Made by a program: the position numbers and the translations under genes
IMG/VR virus record: IMGVR_UViG_3300045988_149840
Coordinates: 1-45,249 of that record
DNA length: 45,249 nt
Origin: a virus
Strand: one strand, 5' to 3'
The notes under the pieces: model-generated
Database searches by the model: none
What the model was told of the DNA's origin: nothing
What the model saw: only the letters and a program-made list of their open reading frames with translations
Part shown: one piece after another, positions 718 through 2,255 of the stretch
Numbering within the stretch: position 1 is the first letter of the stretch
Layout: each line of letters starts with the position of its first letter

Positions 718-2255
718 TTCATCGAAAATCAGCGCGGAAACCCCTGCATTCATGCTGGGGAGGAAGCGCCGCCTCCTTTCTAAGTTCTGTTAAGTAGGTG
801 GTTCGAGGTTCCAGCAGTCTCAACTTTTTGTAGCTGATACCGGCGGAAATCCGCGTACCGTCAAGCCGGCGCACATCAAAACTTCCCGAAGTCCTTCGCC
901 CAAAGATGAACGCCTCTTCACCTTTGCAAATCACCTTGTCGAAAAGACGAAAGCCTTTGACTTCGTAGGGAGCCTGGTTCTTCTTTCTCAATCCGCCTTT
1001 CAGAATTGACAGCTTGTGAATCTGCCGATTGTGCTTTCGGGTTTGCTTTTGAAAGAAAAAGCCCTCCAGGCGCTTTGCACCAAGGTTGTCCGCAATGCAG
1101 TACGCGTCTGCACAGTGGCTCTTTGCGATCCCGTGTGAGATGCGCTTATGCTTGGTGAGATAACCGTAGGTGTTGCGAACACTGAGTTCTGGGTGAGCCT
1201 TTTTCAAACGTTCAAAGAACGTCCAACGCATGATTCCCATGAAGGTTTCCGCTTTGAACGACTTGCCTCGCTTGACTTTGAGCTTGATCTCGCCGCGGTG
1301 CAATGCCTTGTGACAGGTCTCACACAGCGTGATGAGATTGTTCGGCGCATCGCCCCCGATTCGACGGCTCTCAATGTGGTGAACATTGAGTATCGGATCT
1401 TTGGACTTCCCGCGGCAGTGCTGACAAACGTGTCTGTCCCGGAAAAGCACATATTCGCGCACGTTCCAGAAACCGAGTTGTTCACCTCGCTGATAGTCGA
1501 TGCCCTCGACATGCGGATTTTTGATTTTCTGAATGTCAAAAGCTGCCGTTTCGACGGTGATTGCAGCCACAGGTAAAAGCCGCATGACTGCTTCCACGCG
1601 AGACGTGTGCGCCGCTATGCGGTTTTCCACTGAAGGAGCAAGCCAGCCCTCGCGCTTGCTTGCCACCCGGTTGTCGAAACGAGGCGCACGGTAGCGCGTC
1701 TTGCGGCCGCGGCGAGAGCGGCGCAGGGCAAGACGGGCAGACAAAAGATCCGTGATGTCTTGACGCAGTTCGACTTGCGAAGCATAGAGTTCGGCCTTTT
1801 CGGTTGTAGCCGAAAGACCAATGTGCTTGTAGCCTGCATCTACGCCAAGCGTCACAGACTGCTTTGCTTCGCCCGTTGCGATCGTGAGTTGAATCGTAAA
1901 AGGCGTGCGTCTTTTGACGATTGCTTTCTTCTCTTTGAGAAGCAGTCTTGCTTTTGCCGATGAGCATGGCATCTGGGGCTGTCCTCGTTTGTTTAAAACA
2001 AATACTCTCAAGATTTGTCTCCTCGGTCTTGCGACCGGTTGTAATCCTTCGCCAATGTTGGAAGGGGTTTACTTGTTCGCGGCACCGCTCCTACCTCTCA
2101 GAGCTTTTAACCGCCGACCGCAGAGCGCGGAACTAGGATCTACATTCCGCGATGCCTGTGTATTCCCAACCAACGTAGTCCGCCTTTTGGGCGGTCTGAG
2201 GCTAGTCAACCAAGGCTTTTATCAAGCCTCTGCCTTTAGGCAGGGGTTGTTGACC
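718..2255 (-). mobile_element. IscB-only (TnpA-less) IS200/IS605-type OMEGA element, copy 1. The span is defined by similarity to copy 2.
   Basis: Nucleotide similarity to 43321..44857 begins at the stop codon and ends abruptly at 2255. The flanks are unrelated. No Y1 transposase gene is present. Confidence 0.6.
719..2011 (-). CDS. iscB: IscB RNA-guided nuclease (RuvC with inserted HNH), copy 1
   Basis: Motifs seen:
- PLMP-type N-terminus (NKRGQPQMPCSSAKARLLLKEKKA).
- RuvC-I TLGVDAGYKHIGLS.
- RuvC-II ITVETAAFD.
- HNH CQHCRG..NVHHIESRRIGGDAPNNLITLCETCH.
- RuvC-III KSHCADAYC.

The start is TTG at 2011-2009, 7 nt after GAGGAG. About 80 percent of residues match copy 2 by eye. Confidence 0.95.
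   Translation of the reverse strand: MRVFVLNKRGQPQMPCSSAKARLLLKEKKAIVKRRTPFTIQLTIATGEAKQSVTLGVDAGYKHIGLSATTEKAELYASQVELRQDITDLLSARLALRRSRRGRKTRYRAPRFDNRVASKREGWLAPSVENRIAAHTSRVEAVMRLLPVAAITVETAAFDIQKIKNPHVEGIDYQRGEQLGFWNVREYVLFRDRHVCQHCRGKSKDPILNVHHIESRRIGGDAPNNLITLCETCHKALHRGEIKLKVKRGKSFKAETFMGIMRWTFFERLKKAHPELSVRNTYGYLTKHKRISHGIAKSHCADAYCIADNLGAKRLEGFFFQKQTRKHNRQIHKLSILKGGLRKKNQAPYEVKGFRLFDKVICKGEEAFIFGRRTSGSFDVRRLDGTRISAGISYKKLRLLEPRTTYLTELRKEAALPPQHECRGFRADFR

Follow-up and report, generated by a model that had tools for sequence, protein, structure and literature searches.

The DNA analyzed here, positions 1 to 45,249 of the IMG/VR virus record IMGVR_UViG_3300045988_149840 (this whole stretch of 45,249 nucleotides (nt) is called the window below), carries two diverged IscB elements, A and B, each of which combines an omega-RNA scaffold with an iscB gene (Table 1). 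The last 55 nt of the window equal its first 55 nt, which closes it into a circle of 45,194 bp, and Pfam matches to a head-tail connector, a GP7 major capsid protein, a nozzle protein, tail-fibre repeats, Rha, ERF and SSB point to a podovirus-like phage. An Rfam search of the window returned two RNAs above threshold, both of them HEARO (RF02033). In the cmscan comparison with this family, for which the gathering threshold is 83 bits, both copies cover model positions 1-211 of 211. The scaffolds end 12-26 nt ahead of the TTG start of an open reading frame (ORF) with RRXRR (RuvC/PLMP) and HNH domains on the same strand, and the distance from the scaffold 5' end to the start codon is 243 nt. Both copies lie on the minus strand as direct repeats 2.6 kb apart on the same molecule, with 1060 nt between the two elements on the circle. 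The best PDB matches of both proteins are IscB chains (E 4e-39 to 1e-36), both iscB frames are full length and uninterrupted, and the motifs GVDAG and CxxC...HH...N...CxxC are visible by reading the translations. The first-pass annotation of this DNA had named the RNAs IscB omega-RNAs, and the end-to-end HEARO matches upstream of proteins homologous to solved IscB structures bear this name out.

Table 1. Features of the two IscB elements and their neighbourhood, in window coordinates.
Feature	Position	Strand	Remarks
IscB element A	723..2254	minus	1532 nt; omega-RNA scaffold and iscB, discrete mobile unit; homology to other genomes ends at 2254 and ~719-723
omega-RNA A scaffold	2024..2254	minus	Rfam HEARO 2254..2038 (128.9 bits) and terminal hairpin 2037..2024
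Putative guide segment of omega-RNA A	2255..2270	minus	flanking phage DNA, nominal length; the empty site of related phage L194 has the same sequence, then ATGAA
iscB-A	719..2011	minus	430 amino acids, TTG start; Pfam RRXRR 1e-61 and HNH 2e-8; PDB IscB match 4e-39
Probable converted tract in copy A	2079..2183 (maximum); 2115-2161 (minimum)	minus	identical to 44681-44785; 10/10 diagnostic sites B-type
Helix 9/10 hairpin of omega-RNA A	2075..2119	minus	5' strand 2119..2111, 3' strand 2082..2075; mismatches 2116/2077 (C*A) and 2115/2078 (G*G)
Helix 9/10 in copy A			5' strand GGUCGGCGG (B-type), 3' strand CCGCGAAC (A-type); C*A and G*G mismatches
Helix 9/10 in B			5' strand GGUCGGCGG, 3' strand CCGCCGGC; perfect pairing
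Helix 9/10 in A-type relatives (L005, L193)			5' strand GGUUCGCGG, 3' strand CCGCGAAC; perfect pairing
Second short B-type patch in iscB-A (HNH region)	1283..1298	minus	5 consecutive diagnostic sites at which A equals B, against four mutually agreeing A-type relatives; chance ~1e-3
IscB element B	43326..44856	minus	1531 nt; probable donor of the tract; similarity ends at 44856 and ~43322-43326
omega-RNA B scaffold	44627..44856	minus	Rfam HEARO 44856..44641 (137.9 bits) and terminal hairpin 44640..44627
Putative guide segment of omega-RNA B	44857..44872	minus	overlaps the 3' end of a 60-amino-acid ORF at 44859-45041; reasoning as for A
iscB-B	43325..44614	minus	429 amino acids, TTG start; Pfam RRXRR 6e-64 and HNH 1e-7
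Probable donor copy of the identical core	44681..44785	minus	B-type core in L180 and L186-L189 with 1-4 differences
Phage ERF-family annealing protein	42593-43261	minus	Pfam ERF 4e-22; 64 nt downstream of element B
SSB	42205-42600	minus	Pfam SSB 6e-39

Divergence between the two copies is spread unevenly. The iscB genes are 74.4% identical at the nucleotide and 80.7% at the amino acid (aa) level, and the first estimate of one difference in every four to five positions proved accurate (25.6% differ). As many as 49% of third positions are changed, the proportion of differing synonymous sites (pS) is 0.65, the synonymous substitution rate (dS) about 1.5 and its ratio to the nonsynonymous rate (dN/dS) 0.09; the longest identical run between the two coding sequences is 25 nt. 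Comparisons with the relatives introduced below gave dN/dS values of 0.12-0.16 for iscB-A (against L001 and L005) and 0.18 for iscB-B (against L189). The scaffolds share an exact run of 105 nt (2079-2183 = 44681-44785), the core, which had been recognized as identical before and placed at 103 nt. On its two sides the scaffold already differs at 13/71 and 15/67 positions, so that the identity forms a sharply bounded island and does not extend into the coding DNA, as a simple duplication would have it. The difference between core (0/105) and flanking scaffold (28/138) is significant (Fisher p=4e-8), and even at the 12.4% core divergence found between A-type and B-type relatives the probability of observing 0/105 is 9e-7. 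The scaffold differs by 12-22% between the two types, compared with 65% at synonymous sites of iscB.

Relatives were collected as 160 loci from IMG/VR and GTDB genomes, a set that was later enlarged (L numbers); the closest come from Sutterellaceae (Parasutterella, Sutterella, Duodenibacillus) and gut phages. A MAFFT alignment of 138 upstream regions was too gappy (809 columns) for distant pairs and was set aside, and the analysis was carried out on the 36-38 closest sequences, the structure test set comprising 38 omega-RNAs of the clade, 36 of them distinct. The structure examined is the Rfam structure projected onto both copies, supplemented by the 3' terminal hairpin and a handful of evident additional pairs, 74 pairs in all. 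Among the 36 distinct sequences standard pairs occupy 87.5% of cells, compared with 33-46% when the partners are slid by 1-3 columns, and double-sided changes occur in 35/74 pairs, a number reached by none of 500 shuffles (21.2 +/- 2.2). RNAalifold independently recovers most helices, with compensatory change in 24/47 predicted pairs, and the terminal hairpin, numbered helix 11, likewise shows covariation in the clade. The core itself is variable among relatives: of the 36 distinct sequences, 18 have CG and 18 UA at columns 203-226, and the core pair at columns 239-278 is seen as U-A, C-G, G-C and A-U. Other stretches, GGUUAAAAGCUCUGAGAGGUAGGAGCGGUGC for example, hardly vary in the clade. Lineage-specific insertions between the 5' strand of the central stem and the internal stem-loop occur in some of these omega-RNAs, among them a fourfold tandem CACAUUGGGAAUCC expansion in L089 (~1330-1400) and an extra CCGUUCCGUCGCAAGACGGGACG hairpin in all Duodenibacillus massiliensis copies (loci L085, L097-L108).

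Seen against this structure, the covariation between A and B that the first-pass annotation had taken as evidence of a functional RNA is real and thin, amounting to three pairs in two sequences; the firm support comes from the 36 distinct relatives. Four stems had been listed as covarying. Three of them do so, each by one compensatory pair: CUGCC/GGCAG versus CGGCC/GGCCG (U-A to G-C), the GACCGCC hairpin (C-G to A-U at the loop-closing pair) and the 3' hairpin CGGUC-GCAA-GACCG versus CGGCC-UUCG-GGCCG (U-A to C-G, with a GNRA loop replaced by a UNCG loop). The coordinates of the last hairpin in copy B had been set 10 too low and are in fact 44627-44631/44636-44640. In the fourth, AGGCUU/AAGCCU, the difference is confined to the loop. 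Nor do all differences preserve helices. Eight of the 74 pairs differ between the copies; three are compensatory and one changes from U-A to U-G, and the remaining four are unpaired in A and paired in B, two of these at the core boundary.

The origin of the core becomes apparent when copy A is compared with its own relatives. The closest by protein are L001 (93% aa identity) and L005 (91% aa); out of 105 core sites, 13 in L001 and 11 in L005 differ from A, compared with none in B (81% aa). Sites were taken as diagnostic where L001 and L005 share one state and B has another. All 10 such sites in the core of A are in the B state, compared with 34 outside the core, where 266 are A-type and 24 have another state (Fisher p=1.3e-9). 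The nearest omega-RNA relative of A, a sister that shares even its private features, belongs to a miniature element in a related phage (L193). It matches A at 137/138 flanking positions (differences 0/71 and 1/67) and differs from it at 11/105 core positions, all of them at 2115-2161 (Fisher p=5e-4). This RNA has an A-type core, marked by GGGAUGUCAAUCC...GGUUCGCGG, and a perfect helix 9, and its sequence suggests that it is effectively the unconverted state of the lineage of A. The miniature element itself (L193:7134-7460, ENA ERZ28810479) joins a full omega-RNA scaffold with 16 nt of iscB to the element's final ~65 nt; the nuclease gene is deleted, in the manner of a palindrome-associated or miniature inverted-repeat transposable element (PATE, MITE). 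A comparable B-type derivative, L180, has an internal iscB deletion and an intact omega-RNA.

On the side of B, the closest relative, L188, is identical to B at 696/697 nt, and the sole difference is the core site 44763 (2161 in A). The state that A and B have in common at this site occurs in no other close A-type or B-type relative; two more distant clade members, L083 and L003, also have the base A there. The exchange would thus be later than the very recent split of B and L188, with B, or a sequence indistinguishable from it, as donor. Between genomes such identity is not reached: 84 pairs at 80-85% aa have a mean core identity of 0.838 (maximum 0.971), and the longest identical omega-RNA run in 218 pairs at 75-88% aa has a median of 24 nt and a maximum of 83 nt. 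The tract therefore groups with the paralogue and its flanks with the orthologues, a discordance that places the B-derived sequence in A. By exact match, the 105-nt core was not found in IMG/VR outside this phage lineage, a 39-nt core segment with the two rare states was not found in a scan of JGI/ENA metagenome contigs, and the copy-A junction was not found in IMG/VR. The earlier suggestion that a conversion would be limited to the RNA holds nearly but not entirely, as a 16-nt B-type micro-patch also lies in the HNH-coding region of iscB-A (Table 1). In the same gene a segment of ~90 nt (1490-1577, FDIQKIKNPHVEGIDYQRGEQ) is unlike both the A-type relatives and B.

The tract has left a trace in the structure of the RNA. 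Its 3' edge (in RNA sense) falls between 2115 and 2078, inside the long hairpin helix 9/10. Helix 9 is strongly supported in the clade, 8/9 pairs having compensatory changes and 96.9% of cells being paired, and copy A alone of the 36 distinct sequences is unpaired at both of the affected columns (Table 1). The predicted minimum free energy of the hairpin (unconstrained) is -18.0 kcal/mol for copy A, -23.7 for the unconverted form and -15.7 for L001, which naturally has a single mismatch; it does not follow, therefore, that A has lost its function. In the internal stem-loop (helices 7/8), the two types differ by a compensated G-C / A-U pair, and this hairpin was moved whole and is still paired in A. 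By its position, helix 9/10 may correspond to the 'nexus pseudoknot hairpin' of the OgeuIscB omega-RNA.

Taken together, these observations are best read as a recent non-reciprocal conversion from B to A that probably covered 47-105 nt and was superimposed on ordinary purifying selection; we put the probability of this reading at about 0.9. Very strong constraint had been offered as the other possibility when the core was first noticed. Constraint does act here, given a scaffold far more conserved than synonymous sites and its near-invariant stretches, but that it should by itself have left 105 nt so restricted that no substitution survived since the copies diverged is hardly credible: the core varies among relatives with abundant compensatory change (the CG/UA alternation above), the nearest relatives of A differ at 11-13 core sites yet match its flanks, none of the between-genome pairs at similar protein distance reaches 100%, and in A the identical stretch disrupts two base pairs, whereas selection for structure should have preserved them. 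Just as negligible is an assembly artefact in which copy A was threaded through the core of B at the repeat. The window is a metagenomic contig, its 55-nt terminal overlap is typical of a de Bruijn assembly at k=55, the 105-nt repeat exceeds this k, and a Logan contig (L201, run ERR912021) breaks inside the core. Such an error needs junctions on both sides, however, and the stretch common to A-type and B-type sequences measures only ~17 nt at the 5' border of the tract and ~34 nt at the 3' border, less than the final k and too short for graph junctions at k=55. A MEGAHIT contig built at k=119 (L200, ERZ27256422) is 100% identical to window 1-6616, including the exact succession of A flank, B-type core and A flank; its k is longer than the repeat and the contig spans the chimera, which speaks against an artefact. 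L201 itself, identical to the window from 4607 down to 2154 where it ends inside the repeat, has B-type states at 2179, 2161 and 2158 joined to the A flank, and L195, from the same run, reproduces the B region, differing at 2 of 1720 nt and nowhere in the omega-RNA.

Two further explanations accept an exchange and differ in its source or its cause. The donor could have been a third, B-like element, for instance in the chromosome of a Sutterellaceae host, or both copies could have been overwritten from a third source. The scaffolds of B and L180 differ within the core only (4/105 versus 0/138), the clade is visibly mosaic (L187 joins a B-type 5' scaffold to an L082-like 3' end, and the segment at 1490-1577 of iscB-A is another instance), and hosts such as Duodenibacillus have a dozen copies. 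Yet A equals B at 105/105 sites, including 2161/44763 where the near-identical L188 and other close relatives differ, the simplest donor is the copy 2.6 kb away on the same molecule, the B scaffold outside the core is identical to those of L188 and L195 and gives no sign that B was a recipient, and the searches described above found neither the exact core in another element of IMG/VR nor its 39-nt segment in the metagenome scan; a third donor is thus quite improbable. A little less improbable, though still unlikely, is that the conversion was fixed by selection for a shared core that would let either IscB load either omega-RNA as a mutual back-up. Consistent with this, L088 and L103 (85% aa), which reside in one genome, share a 268-nt identical run over the whole omega-RNA, and both same-genome pairs at 80-85% aa have 100% core identity (2/2) compared with 0/84 between genomes. 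Against it, three co-resident pairs keep only 57-62% omega-RNA identity, which makes homogenization sporadic, the tract leaves two mismatches in A and does not look optimized, and recombination between nearby similar repeats needs no selection.

Several points count against a conversion from B to A. Support for the chimera comes from assembled contigs; L200 may share its sample with the window and then represents an independent assembler, not an independent sample. Other B-type cores still depart from that of A and B at 1-4 sites, which would accommodate a closely related third donor. Because L001 naturally has one mismatch in the same helix, the two mismatches of A are no proof of impaired function or of extreme recency. 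Expression, guide use and nuclease activity, finally, are inferred from the literature.

The boundaries of the elements were set by BLAST of relatives against the window, which gave the same two ends in every case, and related phages with empty sites were recovered through their identical ERF protein. Two such phages (L193 and L194) read ...AAATAGCA|ATGAAGGCC... (at greater length ...GCUGAAAAAUAGCA|AUGAAGGCC...) at the position of the 1531-nt element B in the window, and the junction is exact, with no target duplication. For A, the related phage L194 reads ...GAAACGUG|ATGAA... (at greater length ...GCCGUGAAACGUG|AUGAAAUAC...), the same upstream flank being joined directly to ATGAA. Downstream of the A site, window 651-718 (68 nt) and L194:2781-3194 (414 nt) are wholly different, and both begin with ATGAA. 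Element A therefore borders a variable, moron-like region, and only one side of its original empty site can be seen. L188 and L189, 99.86% and 96.6% identical to element B, occupy other insertion sites. The iscB-distal flank begins with ATGA(A) in 7/7 insertions (A, B, L001, L005, L180, the L193 miniature element and the empty sites), and ATGAA, the reverse complement of TTCAT, the transposon-adjacent motif of Geobacillus IS605-family elements, is a candidate target-adjacent motif (TAM). The iscB frames reach the very end of the element (719-726 and 43322-43329), and the TGA stop arises only together with the flanking ATGA(A) (A: ...CG|A TGA; B: ...TG|A), so that the insertion site supplies the stop codon.

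Hairpins can be read from the sequence close to both ends, CCCCUGCCUAAAGGCAGAGG at the omega-RNA end and GGAGGCGGCGCUUCCUCC and CCCCAGCAUGAAUGCAGGGG at the other. A Y1 (HUH) TnpA transposase was not found: there was no Y1_Tnp match among the 48 ORFs of at least 120 aa in the window or in neighbouring ORFs. The elements are therefore non-autonomous, which does not exclude them from the IS200/IS605 family, since most iscB elements are without tnpA (Meers et al., 10.1101/2023.03.14.532601). Both insertions are oriented like the upstream phage ORFs; an orientation bias with respect to the upstream gene, as well as the TTCAT motif of the Geobacillus elements, was described in the same study. All elements are unalignable upstream of the first scaffold bases, GUCAAC, and the empty sites place the boundary there, which fits a guide encoded by flanking DNA, outside the element boundary, as in Meers et al. 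(10.1101/2023.03.14.532601). The segments listed in Table 1 may act as such guides, and expression of the omega-RNAs, their binding by IscB and directed DNA cleavage may be expected by analogy.

The best overall reading, on this basis, is that two diverged members of one clade of non-autonomous IS200/IS605-type elements (IS, insertion sequence) inserted separately into the phage. As in characterized IscB elements, each omega-RNA would be transcribed from upstream phage DNA, the flanking sequence serving as its 5' guide. IscB and its omega-RNA would then cut the empty site left by excision, recognized by guide match and ATGAA, and recombination would re-install the element. The proposed donor joint at the A site is ...GUGAAAUGUG|ATGAA, and the proposed target of IscB-A is ...CGGGCCGUGAAAUGUG followed by ATGAA. 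Two layers would account for the identity. Purifying selection on the RNA holds scaffold divergence at 12-22%, and a recent short exchange would then have copied part of the B scaffold into A and erased the expected 11-13 differences. Such a tract would have moved whole hairpins, and with its 3' edge in a long-range helix it would have set a B-type 5' strand against an A-type 3' strand, leaving a 2x2 internal loop in A. Long identities between the copies are found only in the best conserved parts of the scaffold. Host RecA, the phage ERF and SSB proteins encoded beside B, which are candidates for the recombination machinery, or template switching are equally possible routes.

The pair L088/L103, from the metagenome-assembled genome CAJLGW01 of an uncultured Sutterella, has a 128-nt identical run in the coding sequence in addition to the one over the omega-RNA, and is a second case of within-genome exchange. 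General homogenization within genomes was considered as a rule and rejected, the co-resident pairs with dissimilar omega-RNAs mentioned above (L055/L062, L054/L064 and L013/L017) each lying on a single viral contig. It is a speculative and rather unlikely extension that omega-RNA scaffold segments are repeatedly exchanged between co-resident diverged IscB elements, so that the scaffold evolves in concert and is interchangeable between paralogous nucleases, with copy A as a natural chimera that still functions. No report of conversion between paralogous omega-RNA scaffolds was found in the literature consulted, which is a weak negative.

Some further observations concern the phage. Exact-protein look-ups of IscB-A and IscB-B returned nothing, probably as gene callers picked a different start, and look-ups with the neighbouring ERF and 70-aa proteins did retrieve related contigs. 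Contigs from 136 blocks of the public collection encode an ERF protein 100% identical to this one, and the phage group is therefore common in human gut metagenomes. The 55-nt overlap of the contig ends (window 1-81 and 45096-45249) lies within a series of 15-nt repeats that on the minus strand encode a pentapeptide-repeat protein (RGADL-type); this gene spans the artificial junction and lies between the two IscB elements, and its counterpart in the related phage L193 is a 181-aa Pentapeptide-family protein adjoining ERF. A 45-nt near-perfect palindrome (UUGACAUCCUCCCCCGCCUGAAGUCGGGGGAGGAUGUCAA) occurs twice, at 37177-37221 and, as the reverse complement, at 40919-40963; these copies may be bidirectional terminators or another small repeat element. 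Within ORF 19673-20551, a protein of the structural region has a heptapeptide repeat encoded by seven tandem copies of the 21-nt unit CTGCTGCGGAGACGGCGCAAT (20064-20252).

The system to which these elements belong is that of the HEARO RNA (reported by Weinberg and colleagues, 2009) and the IscB omega-RNA (reported by Altae-Tran and colleagues, 2021). The window contains two IscB/omega-RNA insertion elements in a gut phage, and no new category is needed. Both RNAs resemble the known family in their full-length match to the model, in their position and strand relative to iscB and in having the guide outside the element; their 243 nt compare with an average scaffold of 242 bp, and the extra 3' hairpin beyond the Rfam model agrees with the remark that RF02033 comes without the downstream elements (Meers et al., 10.1101/2023.03.14.532601). 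Nothing is categorically different, and what sets copy A apart is its chimeric scaffold, drawn from two lineages, and the 2x2 internal loop in one helix.

The closest structural reference is the OgeuIscB ribonucleoprotein (PMC9640706; PDB 7xht, 7utn), whose protein is homologous (E=3e-37) and whose omega-RNA terminal hairpins are bound by the PLMP domain (Kato et al., 2022; PMC9640706). Its RNA has the same order of parts, namely a guide-adaptor region, a nexus-type 5-bp stem with non-canonical pairs, a long central stem, an internal stem-loop, a long distorted hairpin and a terminal hairpin. The protein here is shorter (430 versus 496 aa), the guide-adaptor is a three-way branch instead of one 14-bp hairpin, and an extra hairpin (GACCGCC...GGCGGAC) stands ahead of the central stem. 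With respect to the OgeuIscB TAM, NWRRNA, the ATGAAN of A and B fits the first five positions and misses the sixth.

The ISGst IscB/TnpB elements of Geobacillus stearothermophilus (Meers et al., 10.1101/2023.03.14.532601) are likewise without tnpA and insert scarlessly by a TTCAT-type motif (ATGAA in RNA sense). Further likenesses are the donor joint made of guide match and motif, the orientation with the upstream gene and the miniature derivatives without a nuclease gene (L193 and L180), comparable to PATEs. The occupied and empty sites in related phages would provide a clear natural illustration of how guide and ATGAA come together in the donor joints of this clade. The differences are that the host is a gut phage of probable Sutterellaceae and not a Bacillota chromosome, and that the elements described here are known from their sequence alone.

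Ectopic gene conversion and concerted evolution are known between dispersed repeats such as rRNA operons, tuf genes and IS copies. The case of copies A and B is alike in its short non-reciprocal tract, nearby paralogues, sharp boundaries and discordant phylogenies; it differs in that the tract lies in a guide-RNA scaffold, where its edge can be placed precisely because a covarying helix is disrupted. A known system and a known process are thus joined, and the natural chimera, in which a helix is interrupted where the tract ends, is of modest importance. It carries a caution, in that an exact repeat in a structured RNA resembled extreme constraint and was in all probability a conversion patch that damaged one helix; comparisons of paralogues within a genome can therefore make conservation look greater than it is and mask covariation. 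Should the chimeric omega-RNA A prove active, the scaffold would be modular, its internal stem-loop and half of its long hairpin having been swapped between lineages 20% apart in protein, and such modularity, if true, would be relevant to omega-RNA engineering.

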